Source: Candidatus Poribacteria bacterium (GTDB lineage: Bacteria; Poribacteria; WGA-4E; WGA-3G). From it: a stretch of 64,000 bases of DNA. The stretch spans positions 3,169,394 through 3,233,393 of the forward strand of contig OY730443.1 of the NCBI GenBank assembly GCA_963422705.1. The letters are read 5' to 3'. Positions 27,051 to 35,087 of this stretch are shown in pieces. The notes beneath the pieces were generated by a model that was given only the letters and a program-made list of their open reading frames with translations, was not told the origin of the DNA and did not search any database. The position numbers were made by a program, and so were the translations under genes. The stretch's first letter is position 1. Every line of letters starts with the position of its first letter.

Positions 27051-28466
27051 ATGTCAAACATGCCGAGGTTAGTGGTTGAAGTCTTTGAACATGTGAATTT
27101 TCAAGGCCGGAAAGTGACGCTGATTGAGTCAATCCCAAATACCGGGGAAATTGGTGCCCAGGATATTATCTCTTCGGTTAAGATTTACAAAGGACCAGGA
27201 TTTAATGCATCACCGAACTATAAAGCGATTTTTCATGAGCATGAGGGCTATAGGGGACGCAGGCTCGTGTTAGCCCCCGGGTTCTATTCAAACATTCACG
27301 AGATTCCATACAACTTCGGGGATGCAATTACTTCTATCAGTTTTAGTCCATCTGCACATCCGACACCCCCGGAGTACGGGGCTGTCCCGGTTATCATTGA
27401 GGTATTTCGCGATGTTGACTACAGTGGGCAGCACAGCGTTATCATGCGGGATGTTAGTTCTATGTTTGACATCGGGATGAACGATACGATTTCATCAATT
27501 CGCATTCAACGTGGCCCGAGTTTTCCGTTTAGTGGATGCCATGTCGTATTCTATGAGCACGTGAATTTTGAAGGGCGTCGGCTGAGTCTCACTTTAAGTT
27601 CACAAGAATTCCGCGTATCGATTCGGAATCTGCGTTCGTTACCCCACTCCCAGTCATTTTCAGATATTATTTCGTCTTTAAAGATTGTCCCATTAGGTGT
27701 TTTCCGGGTTTTAATTGTTGTTGGTGATAGTATGAGCGGGGAGCCTGCAGTGCTCGAGTCGCTAACGACTTTGGAAGGGTTGAAATTCCAATTTGCGACG
27801 GTGCATATTAATGATAATCCTGACAATCGCGGTGATGCGAATAACGCCATTAAGCTCTCAAGCGTGCCGCTTTCCGATTACGATATCATCTGGTTTACGT
27901 GGAATGCGCCGGGGCACGATGGCGAATATTTTATGGAGGATGCCGACTATGCAATTCGGGATTTTGTCCGGAAGGGTGGTATCGTGTGGGCTTCTGCGAT
28001 GGATAATAACATCATCCCGCCTGATGGCGTGCATACAACGGAACCGACTTGGCGCGGGGAATGGCTACCCGTTGACAGGCATCCCATCCGGGTAATCAAT
28101 TCTAATGACGGGAACATCACGGTAACCGGAGACGGCCAGAAAACCGGCCTCTTTACCTGGCCTCATAAAATTAATGTTGATGCACTTGTTACCGACGATA
28201 ATTGGGTGACGGACGACTCGAGTTATCGCAAATTAGCAATCAGAGAGGATAACGAGGATGCTGTCAGCGTTCAGCTACAGTGGGGTGAGGGCTACTACGT
28301 CACCTTTGCTGTGGATACTCGGGATGCTTACCGCACAACCATATCCAAGCCGCTTATTGAAAATGCGCTCTGTTACTTGGCAAACCTCGCTTGGCAGACG
28401 TCGCCCCGTCAACCGCTCAAAGGCCGGTATCGGACACATCATAGCAGCGATACCATCTTTCGTTAA
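27051..28466 (+). CDS. Beta/gamma-crystallin-domain protein with an uncharacterised C-terminal domain
   Basis: Three Greek-key pairs, for example VVEVFEHVNFQGRKV...ISSVKI, IIEVFRDVDYSGQH...ISSIRI, VVFYEHVNFEGRRL. RBS AAGGAG. Confidence 0.6.
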   Translation: MSNMPRLVVEVFEHVNFQGRKVTLIESIPNTGEIGAQDIISSVKIYKGPGFNASPNYKAIFHEHEGYRGRRLVLAPGFYSNIHEIPYNFGDAITSISFSPSAHPTPPEYGAVPVIIEVFRDVDYSGQHSVIMRDVSSMFDIGMNDTISSIRIQRGPSFPFSGCHVVFYEHVNFEGRRLSLTLSSQEFRVSIRNLRSLPHSQSFSDIISSLKIVPLGVFRVLIVVGDSMSGEPAVLESLTTLEGLKFQFATVHINDNPDNRGDANNAIKLSSVPLSDYDIIWFTWNAPGHDGEYFMEDADYAIRDFVRKGGIVWASAMDNNIIPPDGVHTTEPTWRGEWLPVDRHPIRVINSNDGNITVTGDGQKTGLFTWPHKINVDALVTDDNWVTDDSSYRKLAIREDNEDAVSVQLQWGEGYYVTFAVDTRDAYRTTISKPLIENALCYLANLAWQTSPRQPLKGRYRTHHSSDTIFR

Positions 28467-28638: not shown

Positions 28639-31467
28639 ATGCGTTTTATTGCTGTTATCGTTTTCTTAATTGGGGTCGCGATTGCGATTGGGTACTTCGC
28701 ATATCAAAATCTGGGCGGCTTTGCGTCCACCAGCCTGGTTCGTTGGCTCATCGTTATTTTTGCGGTATTGTTGGGGAGCCTCATTGCGTTCGCAGCTTCA
28801 GTCATCCGATATCGGATTCCGAAAGCGGATGTTGCGCTTATTAGGACGGGGGGCTCCCGGGAAAAAATTCGTGTCACCGGCGGACTCTGGGTAAACACGA
28901 TTATTCATGAAATCAAAGAAGTTTCTCTCAATACCATGCGCATTGAGGTGGTTCGCGAGGGGCCAGAAGCGCTAATCACCTACGACTTCAACCGTGGAGA
29001 TGTTGAAGTCGTTTTTTACCTTAAGGTCGAGCCTGTAGAGGACGGTATCTTACGCGCAGCACAAGCACTCGGCGATAAATCTATGACGCCAGAAACCGTC
29101 CGTGAACTGATAGAACCTAAGCTTGAGGGGGCACTACGCAGTGTTGCCGCCGAAAGTGACATACAAGAGCTCTTGCAGAAACGACAAGAATTCGCTGATA
29201 AAGTACAAGCCACATGTGGCGAAGACCTGGAAGCACAAAATGGGTTGACACTTGAAACTGTCTCCATTATCCGCGTCGATCAGACACCCGTTGAAACATT
29301 GGATGCCGATAACCGTTTTGACGCCGTCGGTATCCGGGAAATTACTGAAATTACAGCCGAGCAGGAACGCGAAAAAACACGCATTGTTCAAGAGAAAGAT
29401 GTAGCAATCGCTCAAATTGAGATGGATGCACGCGTCCGGAAGCTTGAAATCGAACAGGAACAGTCCTGGGCAGAGTCAGATCAGCAGAAGAATATCTCTA
29501 TTTATGCAGCTGAACGGGAAGCCGAGACACTCAAATTTCAGTTTGAGATGGAGCAAGGCGTCCAAGAACGTGAATATGAGATGAAGCAAGAGGTTGAACG
29601 CGCACGCATCACACAGGAACAAGTCGTCCAAGAACGCGAAATTGAGATGAACCGGGATGTTGAAGTCGCCCGCGTCCAACAAGAACAGATTGTCGCTGAA
29701 CGCGAAATTGAGAAAAACCTTATTGTTGAAACGCAACAGATTGAACAATCCAAAGTTGTTCAACTTGCCGAAATTGAGCAGCATCTTATCGTGCAACTGC
29801 AGAAAATTGAGCAGGAACAGAGCATCGCTGTTCGTGATATAGAGAAGGAGTTATTCGTAGAGAAGGCGCGTATTGCGCAAGAAGAGGGTGTGATGCTGCG
29901 TGATATTGAGCGTGATTTACTTGTTCAGACGGAGCGTTTTAGTCAAGAGCAACAGGTTCAGCAGCGTGAGATAGAAAAGAATCTGGTTGTGGAGACAGCC
30001 CAAATCGAGCAGCTTCGGCAAGTAGAACTAGCCGAGATTGCGAAAATGCTAACGGTAGAGATAACGCGCATTGCGCAGCAACAGCAGGTGGAGACGCGCG
30101 ATATAGAGAAGGAGTTATTCGTAGAGAAGGCGCGTATTGCGCAAGAAGAGGGTGTGATGCTGCGTGATATTGAGCGTGATTTACTTGTTCAGACGGAGCG
30201 TTTTAGTCAAGAGCAACAGGTTCAGCAGCGTGAGATAGAAAAGAATCTTGTCGTGGAGACAGCCCAAATCGAGCAGCTTCGGCAAGTGGAACTGGCCGAG
30301 ATTGCGAAAATGCTAACGGTAGAGATAACGCGCATTGCGCAGCAACAGCAGGTGGAGACGCGCGATATAGAGAAGGAGTTATTCGTAGAGAAGGCGCGTA
30401 TTGCGCAAGAAGAGGGTGTGATGCTGCGTGATATTGAGCGTGATTTACTTGTTCAGACGGAGCGCTTTAGTCAAGAGCAACAGGTTCAGCAGCGTGAGAT
30501 AGAAAAGAATCTTGTCGTGGAGACAGCCCAAATCGAGCAGCTTCGGCAAGTGGAACTGGCCGAGATTGCGAAAATGCTAACGGTAGAGATAACGCGCATT
30601 GCGCAGCAACAGCAGGTGGAGACGCGCGATATAGAGAAGGAGTTATTCGTAGAGAAGGCGCGTATTGCGCAAGAAGAGGGTGTGATGCTGCGTGATATTG
30701 AGCGTGATTTACTTGTTCAGACAGAGCGTTTTAGTCAAGAGCAACAGGTTCAGCAGCGTGAGATAGAAAAGAATCTGGTTGTGGAGACAGCCCAAATCGA
30801 GCAGCTTCGGCAAGTGGAACTAGCCGAGATTGCGAAAATGCTAACAGTAGAGCAATCCCGGATTGGCCAGGAATTGCGCGTGGTGTTGACTGATGAGGAT
30901 AGAAAAATCGATGTTGCCAATAAACAGCAGTTGACAGCCCTGGCCGAAAAAGAGCAGCTGGTTGCAGAGGCTGAACGGATGGGTGCCGAAGTAGAGGTTA
31001 CCGCGACTGAACAGCGTGGAGAGGCAGAATGGCAGCGTGAAGTGGCAATCATCGGAGCGGAAGCGCAGGCACAACCAATTGAACGTCTCGCCGACGCGGT
31101 GCTTGCTGAAGCACGCGCCAAAGCACAGGGAGATATGGCAGATTACGAGGCACGAAACGTTGCTGAGCAGCGGGTTCTCGTACAGGAAGCCATCTTAGAA
31201 CTCATTGACGAACTCCCTGATATTTTTGAAGAAATGATGAAACCTGTTGAGAAAATCGACAGCATTAAGATTTTGGATATGGGGAACAATGATGGGCAAC
31301 GCGGTATCACACGTAGCAATATGGGACGTCTCGCAAATGCCTTGCTTGATACCGGCGCAATTTCACCGATGTTAAAGGAATTGTTCAACTTCGCCGATGT
31401 AGATGCGCAACAAATTACGGATAAGATTGCTGAATATCTCGCCGACTTGGTGAATCGCCCCAGTTAA
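28639..31467 (+). CDS. Flotillin/SPFH (band 7, YqiK-like) membrane protein with an expanded coiled-coil repeat region
   Basis: N-terminal TM helix plus SPFH-like segment (LIRTGGSREKIRVTGGLWVNTIIHEIKEVSLNTMRIEV). Long E/Q/R-rich heptad region containing an 88-aa unit repeated about 4 times. Confidence 0.65.
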   Translation: MRFIAVIVFLIGVAIAIGYFAYQNLGGFASTSLVRWLIVIFAVLLGSLIAFAASVIRYRIPKADVALIRTGGSREKIRVTGGLWVNTIIHEIKEVSLNTMRIEVVREGPEALITYDFNRGDVEVVFYLKVEPVEDGILRAAQALGDKSMTPETVRELIEPKLEGALRSVAAESDIQELLQKRQEFADKVQATCGEDLEAQNGLTLETVSIIRVDQTPVETLDADNRFDAVGIREITEITAEQEREKTRIVQEKDVAIAQIEMDARVRKLEIEQEQSWAESDQQKNISIYAAEREAETLKFQFEMEQGVQEREYEMKQEVERARITQEQVVQEREIEMNRDVEVARVQQEQIVAEREIEKNLIVETQQIEQSKVVQLAEIEQHLIVQLQKIEQEQSIAVRDIEKELFVEKARIAQEEGVMLRDIERDLLVQTERFSQEQQVQQREIEKNLVVETAQIEQLRQVELAEIAKMLTVEITRIAQQQQVETRDIEKELFVEKARIAQEEGVMLRDIERDLLVQTERFSQEQQVQQREIEKNLVVETAQIEQLRQVELAEIAKMLTVEITRIAQQQQVETRDIEKELFVEKARIAQEEGVMLRDIERDLLVQTERFSQEQQVQQREIEKNLVVETAQIEQLRQVELAEIAKMLTVEITRIAQQQQVETRDIEKELFVEKARIAQEEGVMLRDIERDLLVQTERFSQEQQVQQREIEKNLVVETAQIEQLRQVELAEIAKMLTVEQSRIGQELRVVLTDEDRKIDVANKQQLTALAEKEQLVAEAERMGAEVEVTATEQRGEAEWQREVAIIGAEAQAQPIERLADAVLAEARAKAQGDMADYEARNVAEQRVLVQEAILELIDELPDIFEEMMKPVEKIDSIKILDMGNNDGQRGITRSNMGRLANALLDTGAISPMLKELFNFADVDAQQITDKIAEYLADLVNRPS
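29836..30855 (+). repeat. 264-bp near-perfect tandem repeat x about 3.9 inside the flotillin-like gene
   Basis: Unit starts at 29836, 30100, 30364 and 30628 (gatatagagaaggagttattcgtagagaaggcgcg...), with only a few SNPs between copies. Confidence 0.9.
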
Positions 31468-31512: not shown

Positions 31513-32808
31513 ATGCGACATGTAACCCTACGAAAACGCCCCAAACGTCAACGTTGCCGTACCTGTCGTTCCGATAACGGTAAACGTATCTGCCCTGCAC
31601 TCAGCGGCATGTTAATCTGTCCTGAATGCTGTAGAGCGAAACGCGCGAAGATTCCTGGGTGTGATGAGAAGTGCCGGTACTACGCCCCGCTCCTTGTTTC
31701 AAGCAAGGTGCAGAAGATGCCCGATTACCCAATACACCGGTGTCTTGTCAGTCGTTCAAGCGATACCGGGATGTTAATCGTAGTCGGCACGCGAAAACGT
31801 CCAGATGGGAACGTGAAGGCGATGTTTCTGCTTCTTGACCTCTGGAAAAAAGGCATCCGGGACTGCTTTTTTGATGCAAATCTCTCCGAGAAACAGTTTG
31901 AACGTGTTGCCCAAAGCATCGGCAAAAGTTACAATTTAATGGAATATGCCGGGCTCGACGAGCCGGACGAAATCGACGGGGAGGCAGCGCCTGTAGATAT
32001 TCGCCTGCCGAGAAATACGCTGGTTATTGAAGCGGATGCTGCGGTACACGTGGATAAAGGCGTACGTATCATTGAGCATGAAGGGGCATCCGGGGGAAAA
32101 GCGATTGATAGCCTGAGAGGCGCCCGCGCAATACACGAAATTTATATTCCGAAGACCGGGCGATGGTACGTTTGGTTGCGCGTTCTCTTTGACAGTGGCA
32201 GAAAAGACTCTTATTGGGTGGGGATGGATGACGCGAAAGCGCACCCTTGGAATCAAGAAGGCGGCCCCGGGGCAATCAAAATTTATGCGGAACCTGGGGA
32301 CTCCAAAAAATGGAGACGCTGGCTCTGGGATTCCGGCATAGATAACATCCATGGAATCAGTCCGTGTTTTTTTCACGTAAAACAGACAGGGTACTATCAG
32401 CTCTGGTCCAAAGGGAGGGAGCCGGGTTCTTGCTTGGACCAGATTTGTCTGACACGTTCTCGAAATTTTAATCCGGAAATCGCATCGGATGGAAAACCCC
32501 TCCCAGTTATGCGGGCACCGCATCCTTACGAGCCAATTTCCGTTCACGAATCCCAAAAACTCATCCGTCATGCTGTTGACATTGCAACCGCCGTTAACAC
32601 CGAATTGCCTTGGGAATTTCAATATTGGGTTCATGATATGTGGGGCGATATCTCCAAATTTCCTAAAACGGAAGGCTCTCTCTATAAATGCCCGAAGTGT
32701 GGCGAGGAGCTGCCCCGACAAGCAGTTGAACTGATGATACAACACGCGCAGTCGGATGATATTCAATTCTACATCTTATGCCGAAAGTGCGGGGGCGAAT
32801 TTGATTGA
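31513..32808 (+). CDS. Hypothetical Cys-rich protein with a C-terminal zinc-ribbon
   Basis: N-terminal CxxC cluster (CRTCRS...CPECC...CDEKC) and C-terminal CPKCGEEL...CRKCGGEF. The true start is probably internal. An antisense ORF also exists. Confidence 0.4.
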   Translation: MRHVTLRKRPKRQRCRTCRSDNGKRICPALSGMLICPECCRAKRAKIPGCDEKCRYYAPLLVSSKVQKMPDYPIHRCLVSRSSDTGMLIVVGTRKRPDGNVKAMFLLLDLWKKGIRDCFFDANLSEKQFERVAQSIGKSYNLMEYAGLDEPDEIDGEAAPVDIRLPRNTLVIEADAAVHVDKGVRIIEHEGASGGKAIDSLRGARAIHEIYIPKTGRWYVWLRVLFDSGRKDSYWVGMDDAKAHPWNQEGGPGAIKIYAEPGDSKKWRRWLWDSGIDNIHGISPCFFHVKQTGYYQLWSKGREPGSCLDQICLTRSRNFNPEIASDGKPLPVMRAPHPYEPISVHESQKLIRHAVDIATAVNTELPWEFQYWVHDMWGDISKFPKTEGSLYKCPKCGEELPRQAVELMIQHAQSDDIQFYILCRKCGGEFD

Positions 32809-35087
32809 TAAGGAATCAATTCGTGAGCAAATCCACGCCGACTGGCATTCACCGCATTCTGATTGTGACGGGGCATGCACGCATTCACATCGATGGAATG
32901 CGACATGTCGCATCTGTTATTTTTATGAGGTTTTGTATCGGTATGTCTCGCGCCCTACTGATAATAAGTCTTAGCCTCTTTACATCGCTAGCCATCCCCG
33001 CGCCACCGAACCCTTCTTATTACTTTAACGTCGATGTCGTAACAGGTGAATTGCACCCTAAATTTCCACAGAGTGCCCTTAAGTTTATGCAGGCACTGGA
33101 TGGCTGCTGCTTTGCCGCGCCGCAGCGCAATCTGCAGCCTGATGGTGTTGAATATGTGCTCGCCCTCAAGGTGGATTTTGTTGATGTACCCGGACTTAGG
33201 ACTGGTACTGAATTAACGCAATACCTTTTTGATACAGACGGCGTTTCTTTGAAAACCTACTACTGGGAAAATTCTTATGGCCAAATGGATATCCAACCGG
33301 GCCCGCTCGGGGGTGTTGTACCGGCTGGCAATCGCTGGGTACGCGCGAAAAAACCGATGGGTTATTACGGGGAGGGGGGCGGCGTTAACGTTGTTCGCAG
33401 TCAAGAATTGGTGCGCGAGGTGTGTCAAGCCGTCGATGCAAGTATCGATTTTTCGCAGTATGACAGGGACAAGGATGGGCGTGTAGAACATGTTTTTATC
33501 ATTCATTCGGGCAATGACAACGCAACGTCCGGTGTACCCGAGGATATCTGGTCTGCCTTAATCCCGGGCATTGGGCTGACGGTTGATAGCGTATTAATTG
33601 ACACTGCTGTGCTCGTTGCTGAGGAACCGGATTTTGAGTACCCGCATTTGGGCATCTACTTTCACGAATTCTTCCACAATTTCGGTGCGCCAGACATTTA
33701 TGGGCTTAATTTCACCGATGCCCGTGACAATAAATGGTCCCTGATGGGCGCATTTGGGCCTTATCAGGGACCTGATGTACGCGGTTTTGGAAACGGTTTA
33801 GCCCCAAGTCATATCATGGGGTATCTCAAATGGGATTTCGATGGGCGCCCGGAAAATGGGCGCGTTGGGTGGATTGAACCTGTAACTATCACACAAAATG
33901 GAAATTTCTCTATTCCGAGTTTCGCGCTTCCACCGAAAACTGACAAGCTTTTCAAAATTGATATTACCAACCTAGCGAACAGATTTGGTGACTCACTGGG
34001 ACGGAACGTCTCTGAATTCTTCCTGATAGAAAATCGTTACAAAGCCTCTGGAACGAGGTTTGATACCTACTTGCCTGAATCCGGTATTCTGATATGGCAT
34101 ATTGATGAAAGATACGTGCGCCCCGTTGGCAGTTTTGATGCCTCGCAACAGATTTGGCTTGAAGATCCGACAGATCCGGAACACATCGGAATTTCAGAAA
34201 CCGGGACGGGGTTTATAGATATTCAGCGCATTACCAACGGTGCGGCTTACTCCGCTGATGATGGGCAGACATCTTTTACGCCCGGGAGTTTGCCGAATAG
34301 CAATGCCAACGACGGCACTGTAACCGGTATCTCAATTACCAATATCGGGCCTGAAGGGCTAACCGTTCCCATAAGCGTATCCTTTGGAGATACATACGAA
34401 CCCAATGATACGTTCGCTCGGGCATTTCCCATCAGATATGGACAGCTATACGAATCCTTCATTTTTGATGCGACTGATACGCGTGATATCTACCAATTGG
34501 AAGTACTCAAGGGTATCACGATTCGTGTGACGCTTACACATGTTTCGCGCTTACAAAAGTACGCTCTTTTTCTGATGGATGGGAGGAATGAAATCAGAAA
34601 AGAGGCGGATTTGGACATTTCTTCTTCCAATCCCGCTGAGCTTATCACCAATTCTATTCGGCTGCAACTCGTTTATCAGCCTGATGTGACAGGGACGTTC
34701 TACATTATTATAGAGTCAGATGGTGGCTTTAGCAATGTTGATTCTTACAGGCTGCAAGTAGAGCAGTTGGAGGCCGGGGCTTTCGGCATCGCGTCGCTTC
34801 GGATTTATCCGAATCCCCTGCGCCTCGACGATGGGATGATGAATTTTGAATATCAGCTTGCCGCATCGCAAACGGCGGATAGTGTCAAACTTGAGATTTT
34901 TAGCCTCGCTGGTGACATAGTATACAATGACATGCATCGGGAGGTTTTTTCAGGCGGCACGTTCCAATGGCGAGGGGTAACGCGGACTGGCAGTCAAATC
35001 GCACCCGGTATCTATGTTTACCGAATCTCTGCGAGCCAAGCAGATATCAGCACGCAAGAGATTGGTAAGGTGATTCTGCTCAAATAG
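32805..35087 (+). CDS. M6 (immune inhibitor A)-like zinc metallopeptidase with a T9SS-type C-terminal sorting domain
   Basis: HEFFHNFGAPDIYG matches HExxHxxGxPDxY of the M6 family. Signal peptide/TM. C-terminus LRIYPNPLRLDDG...EIFSLAGDIVY resembles Por CTD. Confidence 0.65.
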   Translation: MIRNQFVSKSTPTGIHRILIVTGHARIHIDGMRHVASVIFMRFCIGMSRALLIISLSLFTSLAIPAPPNPSYYFNVDVVTGELHPKFPQSALKFMQALDGCCFAAPQRNLQPDGVEYVLALKVDFVDVPGLRTGTELTQYLFDTDGVSLKTYYWENSYGQMDIQPGPLGGVVPAGNRWVRAKKPMGYYGEGGGVNVVRSQELVREVCQAVDASIDFSQYDRDKDGRVEHVFIIHSGNDNATSGVPEDIWSALIPGIGLTVDSVLIDTAVLVAEEPDFEYPHLGIYFHEFFHNFGAPDIYGLNFTDARDNKWSLMGAFGPYQGPDVRGFGNGLAPSHIMGYLKWDFDGRPENGRVGWIEPVTITQNGNFSIPSFALPPKTDKLFKIDITNLANRFGDSLGRNVSEFFLIENRYKASGTRFDTYLPESGILIWHIDERYVRPVGSFDASQQIWLEDPTDPEHIGISETGTGFIDIQRITNGAAYSADDGQTSFTPGSLPNSNANDGTVTGISITNIGPEGLTVPISVSFGDTYEPNDTFARAFPIRYGQLYESFIFDATDTRDIYQLEVLKGITIRVTLTHVSRLQKYALFLMDGRNEIRKEADLDISSSNPAELITNSIRLQLVYQPDVTGTFYIIIESDGGFSNVDSYRLQVEQLEAGAFGIASLRIYPNPLRLDDGMMNFEYQLAASQTADSVKLEIFSLAGDIVYNDMHREVFSGGTFQWRGVTRTGSQIAPGIYVYRISASQADISTQEIGKVILLK

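Follow-up and report, generated by a model that had tools for sequence, protein, structure and literature searches.

The contig OY730443.1 of a sponge-associated Candidatus Poribacteria genome (assembly GCA_963422705.1) was analysed over a stretch of 64,000 nucleotides (nt; contig positions 3,169,394 to 3,233,393), hereafter called the window, whose own numbering is used for all coordinates unless another locus is named. At 28639..31467 on the + strand, the window carries an open reading frame (ORF) for a flotillin-family (SPFH) protein of 942 amino acids (aa), assigned by the Pfam Band_7 and Flot models. Within this gene lies an array of four 264-nt modules (29836..30891, + strand), each encoding 88 aa arranged as 4 × 22 aa. 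The array is probably an extension of the flotillin cage wall, with each module adding approximately 13 nm of helix. This interpretation builds on the periodicity of the repeat, the two-faced pattern of its hydrophobic residues, the continuity of the predicted helix and its likeness to the wall of flotillin, and thus combines sequence features with analogy to solved cages.

The presence of a four-unit tandem array, proposed in a preliminary description of this DNA, was borne out by two methods. Tandem Repeats Finder (TRF) reported a period of 264 nt over 29836-30852, with 3.9 copies, 98% matches, no indels and a score of 1964, and an independent repeat search found four copies at a spacing of exactly 264 nt. 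The array lies in frame within the ORF. When the units were defined by cutting the array at 29836 + 264k, units 1-3 differed pairwise at 1-5 nt, with only a single nucleotide in 264 separating units 2 and 3. The four units represented four different haplotypes, and with unit-to-unit DNA identities of 97.3-99.6% over 225 nt, the array was the most homogeneous among those compared. The synonymous polymorphisms claimed between the units were also found: all variable sites in the first 225 nt of the unit (7/7) were synonymous third positions (P ~2e-5 by chance, given that ~21% of sites are synonymous). Therefore, the encoded peptide is identical in all four units over 75 residues. The last 39 nt of unit 4 were divergent, with nine amino acid changes at the junction with the unique downstream sequence, and the array thus consists of ~3.85 near-identical copies, in line with the end coordinate in the preliminary description.

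The internal structure of the module differed from the 2 × 44-aa repeat described earlier. Among the four sub-units of the 88-aa module, identities were 8-11/22 at lag 22, 9-11/22 at lag 44 and 11/22 at lag 66. This equal similarity at the three lags indicates that the base unit is 22 aa (2 × 11), present four times per module on an 11-residue quantum. A period of 66 nt was also found by TRF to underlie the 264-nt period of the array. The more degenerate copies suspected ahead of the array do exist; five clear, older 22-aa units were recognised at aa 290-399 (29506..29835, + strand) when the protein was printed in a 22-residue register, and TRF detected a period of 66 with 77% matches at 29550-29713 within them. 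This degenerate stretch was conserved and of fixed length in all orthologues. Approximately 21 consecutive 22-aa units extend over aa 290-751 with the consensus [DE]-I-E-[KR]-x-L-x-V-E-x-x-R-I-x-Q-E-Q-x-V-x-x-R, in which columns 2, 6, 8, 13 and 19 are the conserved hydrophobic positions.

The periodicity of these residues was evaluated on a non-redundant stretch of 198 aa, consisting of the five degenerate units and one module, against 2000 shuffles. Hydrophobic power at periods of 5.5 and 2.75 residues was not matched in any shuffle (0/2000), and that at 2.2 was matched in ~1/2000. At the period of 3.5, the power was 1.9 vs. a shuffle mean of 12.2, and 86% of the shuffles scored higher. Owing to this absence of a 3.5-residue periodicity, the repeat region cannot be regarded as a classical heptad coiled coil, and the earlier designation of a coiled-coil region was not supported. 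Instead, the hydrophobic residues lie 5.5 residues apart on two roughly opposite faces (2/6/13 vs. 8/19), each of which recurs every 11 residues (three turns). Such an arrangement suggests that the helix contacts one neighbour on each side, in a right-handed hendecad geometry and not in a left-handed heptad coiled coil. In the best 128 family representatives, lags of 11 and 22 likewise gave more self-identity than those of 7, 14 and 21. The wall segment of human flotillin-1, rebuilt from an alignment, had its top peaks at 2.21, 2.73 and 5.57 residues.

The repeat region appears to be a continuous helix. No proline occurs in aa 223-800, and each module contains one glycine. An AlphaFold2 (AF2) monomer model was generated from a 25-sequence alignment of close homologues, and only its assignment of helix or non-helix was used; helix was predicted, with low confidence, over aa 223-780. 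A helix of this length (~560 residues) would have a contour of roughly 80 nm, and those of relatives reach ~800 aa or more. Helical hairpins or a spectrin-like bundle inside the 88-aa unit were considered and rejected, as the 22-aa junctions lack helix breakers and a module has only the one glycine.

The domains on either side of the helix supported the assignment of the protein to the flotillin/SPFH group that had been made in the preliminary description. The N-terminal membrane anchor (28645..28806, + strand) comprises two hydrophobic helices (aa ~3-22 and ~35-56) followed by the motif RYRIPK, and AF2 placed low-confidence helices at residues 2-24 and 32-59 in this region. Based on the positive-inside rule, the bulk of the protein after the anchor is probably cytoplasmic. 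The SPFH/Band_7 domain follows at aa 60-244 (28816..29370, + strand; PF01145, E=6.3e-16, 59.4 bits vs. a cut-off of 23.6) and aligns to flotillin-1 from residue 21 of the latter on. Downstream of the array, a non-repetitive segment (aa 752-806; 30892..31056, + strand) is modelled as helix up to aa 780, with a break before the cap; the DSSP assignment of the AF2 model gave helix over 599-780, at low confidence. The flotillin C-terminal domain at aa 807-917 (31057..31389, + strand; PF15975, E=5.4e-19, 68.9 bits vs. a cut-off of 27) contains a segment resembling the cap helix and a beta-strand-like segment (SIKILDMG). Residues 780-884 align to 284-386 of flotillin-1, with LPDIFEEM opposite LPQVAEEI and IKILDMG opposite ITLVSSG. 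The only solved relatives found by sequence were flotillin-1/2 (9bq2, 9l3g), with weak scores (E ~1e-3). On sequence grounds, the protein has every testable feature of the flotillin family. Its orthologues in Candidatus Poribacteria are annotated as SPFH domain-containing proteins or as ‘uncharacterized membrane protein YqiK’. Low-complexity matches on the repeats (Rv2175c_wHTH, IMP2_C, phosphomevalonate kinase and a sigma-factor model) were discarded, each having 0 significant stretches. The unusual length remarked on earlier was also confirmed; the best 150 family representatives, drawn from 1.84 billion protein clusters, had a median of 572 aa, and only two exceeded 766 aa.

Closed cages of SPFH proteins have been known from cryo-electron microscopy since 2022. 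In flotillin, the cage wall forms a right-handed single-layer barrel made up of 44 side-by-side helices, each of 186 aa and without heptads (PMC11260169). Across SPFH proteins, the wall helix has a length of 44 to 189 aa, which has been proposed to set the size and subunit number of the complex (PMC11260169). By analogy, the poribacterial protein would be a membrane-anchored scaffold, probably facing the cytoplasm, in which a long helix of 22-residue units connects the SPFH domain with the cap domain. We infer from the solved cages that these helices pack side by side into a single-layer right-handed barrel, that is, the wall of a cage. Four 22-aa units form the 88-aa module, which is acquired or lost in one piece, and one module would correspond to eight hendecads, 24 turns and ~13 nm of helix contour. 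As the observed lengths change in multiples of 11, both lateral packing seams and the cap would stay in register. The number of modules would set the length of the wall, and through it the height or volume of the membrane-proximal compartment that the cage encloses. An effect on wall length or cage height therefore seems likelier than the tuning of microdomain scaffold spacing suggested in the preliminary description.

Several observations weigh against this interpretation. A wall about three times as long as that of flotillin cannot simply continue the taper of the latter (32 to 19 nm over 186 aa); thus, the geometry or the number of subunits must differ. The periodicity of flotillin-1 itself was modestly significant, with P ~0.02-0.1 at the exact periods of 2.75 and 5.5. 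The AF2 monomer model was poor, with a mean predicted local distance difference test (pLDDT) score of 53 and an SPFH domain that was not folded; it also showed low-confidence kinks at or near the conserved EEG glycine in modules 1 and 3 and low confidence around that of module 4. The NCBIfam equivalog model for FloT (NF058507) gave 35.4 bits vs. a cut-off of 700, and by sequence the protein is a flotillin-family member but not an orthologue of FloT. No NfeD or other partner gene was found within ~8 kb (ORFs of ≥150 aa, 20.3-40.1 kb). Finally, the assembly is the sole source of the four-copy count in the window.

The length of the helix could also be explained by a fibrous stalk or tether, that is, a few-stranded rod that fixes how far the C-terminal domain lies from the membrane, the number of modules acting as a spacer ruler. 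A contour of ~80 nm is hard to fit into a tapering cone, and the narrow end of flotillin cages sometimes touches a second membrane (PMC11260169), so that a distance-setting role is conceivable. However, a rod of this kind is not what the absence of a 3.5-residue periodicity suggests, and hydrophobic residues on two roughly opposite faces would be expected of a helix that touches a neighbour on either side. The spectral peaks match those of the flotillin-1 wall, and the elements that close the flotillin cage, namely the cap and the beta-strand, are conserved. We therefore consider a stalk unlikely and favour a cage wall.

A comparison with orthologues, recommended at the outset as a check, revealed that the length of the array varies in discrete steps. 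A protein search over 5.8 billion proteins, in which identities from the best local alignment and from full-length alignment were kept apart, yielded Candidatus Poribacteria orthologues with 72-88% (local) and 78-91% (full-length) identity. Most were 766 aa long (100/120), with 11 of 764-765 aa, eight of 854-856 aa and a single one of 787 aa. Among GTDB species representatives, a scan identified 80 poribacterial loci, and ~90 Candidatus Poribacteria genomes were covered in total. Array length was taken between two fixed conserved anchors, the C-terminal one being the segment after the array, in 76 complete genes. The usual array was 176 aa, or two modules (57 genomes); the others measured 88 aa (four genomes), 264 aa (six), 352 aa (four, plus the window) and 165 aa (four). 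The four other four-copy genes (L001-L004) come from long sequences, the contigs or chromosomes measuring 1.4 to 6.7 Mb. As lengths of one, two, three and four units occur in Mb-scale and chromosome-level assemblies, the length variation is biological. The 165-aa arrays, all in one clade (L062, L068, L071 and L073; array at aa ~399-564), lack exactly 11 residues within the fourth 22-aa unit of module 1, a deletion that shifts the 22-aa register by half a unit. No other observed change departed from multiples of 88 aa, and even this one amounts to a full hendecad; every observed length change was a multiple of 11 residues.

Longer arrays were found in two loci of more distant relatives. Locus L085 (2001-5555; metagenome contig Ga0194125_10000426, 70 kb) encodes an intact flotillin of 1184 aa, 59% identical to the window protein, with 6.3 units of 264 nt. 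In L011 (5911-10071; CAZOAL010000043.1), 7.7 units are followed by a 100-N scaffold gap within the array and approximately one more unit; the apparent flotillin has at least 1386 aa, and the copy number is uncertain but at least nine.

The history of the array could be traced from the relationships among units. In two-copy genes, the DNA identity between modules 1 and 2 was 71-98.7% (median, 84.9%). Where the nearest unit was in another two-copy genome, it occupied the same position in 81/82 cases, whereas for 22/114 units the nearest was the sister in the same genome. These position-wise relationships suggest that two diverged modules are ancestral, and the same-genome sisters point to sporadic homogenisation. 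A neighbour-joining (NJ) tree of the non-repeat parts of 76 taxa combined with Fitch parsimony required at least 14 length changes, with at least four origins of the four-copy state and four of the one-copy state; copy number changed independently at least 13 times. Outside the array, the closest relative of the window was L006 (90.3% aa identity; three copies), and the other four-copy genes were only ~87% identical to the window protein. The proportion of synonymous differences (pS) was 0.02-0.125 between the window copies vs. 0.44 between the window and L006 (399 N-terminal codons). The far lower divergence between copies indicates that the expansion in the window is recent, in agreement with the preliminary description. 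In this genome, the two ancestral modules would thus have undergone a recent expansion or homogenisation to four. The repeat anatomy points to unequal homologous recombination or replication slippage between 264-bp direct repeats as the most likely mechanism.

Purifying selection on the copies is strong. The ratio of nonsynonymous to synonymous differences (pN/pS) between copies within genomes was 0.16 when pooled. In L085, the first five units share 87-95% DNA identity and have only 0-2 aa differences (pN/pS of 0.06); the sixth shares 80-87% DNA identity with them. The divergence of these units despite the conservation of the protein indicates that long arrays can be old and maintained, and are not merely transient or artefactual.

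The changes in copy number might nevertheless be selectively neutral by-products of a recombination-prone repeat, with no effect on the scaffold. Copy number is scattered over the tree without an obvious clade pattern, and two copies are by far the commonest state, as such a neutral process would allow. This explanation appears quite improbable in the light of the strong purifying selection on every copy (pN/pS of 0.06-0.16) and of the exclusive occurrence of multiples of 11 residues. Moreover, the arrays of L085 and L011 (~6 to >8 units) have persisted to a DNA divergence of 5-20%, mostly synonymous in L085, without decay. Constraint on the structure does not, however, imply that copy number itself is adaptive. 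A contingency locus or phase variation was rejected, since every change preserves the reading frame and a cytoplasmic location is predicted for the protein.

We also considered that the count of four in the window might be an assembly artefact, in which a shorter array was over-expanded or units of co-existing strains were threaded together. The warning in the preliminary description that such an array is hazardous to assemble proved justified; N gaps occur inside the array in three loci from short-read metagenome-assembled genomes (MAGs; L011, L065 and L076), and the array is cut off by the contig end in at least two more cases (L044 and L082). Short reads cannot order units 2 and 3, and an exact look-up found no other record of the 942-aa protein. 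On the other hand, with four distinct haplotypes, the reads must have contained at least four unit sequences, and neither the reading frame nor the 88-aa quantum is disturbed. Independent four-copy arrays in the four Mb-scale or chromosome-level assemblies (L001-L004), together with the longer arrays of L085 and L011, whose units differ by a resolvable 5-20% of DNA, further argue against an artefact, which we consider very unlikely. Nevertheless, short-read assemblies break or mis-count at this locus, and the annotated lengths of these proteins need care. In another short-read MAG, the SPFH-coding part of the gene (L005, 6256-6916) contained three 20-N gaps and a 53-nt tandem repeat of 2.8 copies (GGACACCGTAGCGCGGGGGCCTGTCCCCCGCG...), which reflects either an assembly error or the insertion of a repeat element.

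If the array is indeed an extension of the cage wall, it may offer a way to examine how wall length relates to cage size, an idea so far compared only across distantly related family members. The poribacterial genes constitute an isogenic-like natural series, in which the SPFH domain and cap are constant and the wall comes in exact 88-aa modules (1, 2, 3, 4, ~7 and ≥9), with one 11-aa deletion. This quantised series makes the proposal that wall length sets cage size directly testable, and the data show an 11-residue quantum in the packing code of the wall. Length variation in a helical repeat protein would not in itself surprise a specialist. More speculatively, these proteins could assemble into very tall cages or tubes at the cytoplasmic face of the membrane, with the height tuned in steps of ~13 nm per module, although we regard this as doubtful. 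In that case, the wall helices would be 3 to >5 times as long as any solved SPFH wall, with contours of roughly 45-120 nm, and the protein would serve a membrane compartment as a molecular ruler, natural and evolvable, to which lineages repeatedly add modules or from which they remove them.

The genes adjoining the flotillin gene were largely conserved among the 80 poribacterial loci. Upstream, a 471-aa protein with two beta/gamma-crystallin domains (27051..28466, + strand; Pfam Crystall) was encoded in 80/80 loci; its crystallin domains are N-terminal, and its 250-aa C-terminal half had no Pfam or NCBIfam match. Downstream, a 431-aa ORF without a family match, whose N- and C-terminal motifs are Cys-rich (31513..32808, + strand), was present in 76/80 loci, followed by an ORF for an M6-family (InhA-like) peptidase with a C-terminal domain of the type IX secretion system (T9SS) type, as recognised with Pfam (32805..35087, + strand), in 70/80. 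A gap of 45 nt separates the flotillin stop codon from the 431-aa gene, which overlaps the peptidase gene by 4 nt; these short distances suggest that the three genes are probably co-transcribed. In two of the four-copy genomes, extra DNA of ~3.3 kb (L001, 8835-12193) and ~5.4 kb (L002, 8835-14224) lies between the flotillin gene and the normally adjoining downstream gene. An NfeD-family gene adjoining a bacterial flotillin gene is common but not defining, and several SPFH proteins act together with proteases. A protease partner adjoining the flotillin gene was sought and was not found.

Within the array, the same short GC hairpin, resembling a terminator, recurs once per unit on the - strand (30065-30077, 30329-30341 and 30593-30605). 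A scan for promoter and terminator consensus sequences over 28.3-31.7 kb gave no more sites than in shuffled sequences, and these antisense, repeat-borne hairpins are therefore probably meaningless. The exact 32-nt pattern at the start of the unit had 0 matches when searched against metagenome contigs.

Our literature search retrieved no paper on flotillin in Poribacteria, none that relates SPFH proteins to a hendecad periodicity, and nothing relevant on the copy number of tandem repeats in flotillins. A paper on compartmentation in Poribacteria did not mention SPFH proteins; accordingly, we draw no link to the intracellular structures reported there.

Compared with other SPFH cages, the poribacterial protein would share its general plan with HflK/HflC, prohibitin, stomatin and erlin, in which an SPFH ring on the membrane carries parallel helices as the wall, together with a cap. 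The walls of these proteins, however, measure 44 to ~189 aa and have no tandem near-identical modules, and several of the cages enclose or regulate proteases, whereas no such partner was found here. FloT of Bacillus subtilis and YqiK of Escherichia coli are similar in their Band_7 and Flot architecture and N-terminal membrane anchor; they differ in length (typically ~570 aa in the family vs. 678 to ≥1184 aa in the poribacterial proteins), and neither an 88-aa super-unit nor a copy-number series was found described for them in the literature searched. The wall itself resembles that of the eukaryotic flotillin-1/2 cage (9bq2, 9l3g; PMC11260169), in which the SPFH domain likewise precedes a long heptad-free helix and then, in order, a cap helix plus beta-strand and the C-terminal domain; flotillin-1 has the same hydrophobic peaks near 2.2, 2.75 and 5.5 residues. 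The wall helix of flotillin-1/2 is 186 aa, in contrast to ~560 aa with a near-identical array of 4 × 88 aa in the window protein; flotillin is anchored by lipidation instead of two predicted transmembrane helices, and its cage is a 22+22 hetero-oligomer, whereas the poribacterial assembly would presumably be homo-oligomeric. The unusual points of the poribacterial protein are thus the length of its helix and its 88-aa super-module, which varies from one to at least 7-9 copies among close relatives.

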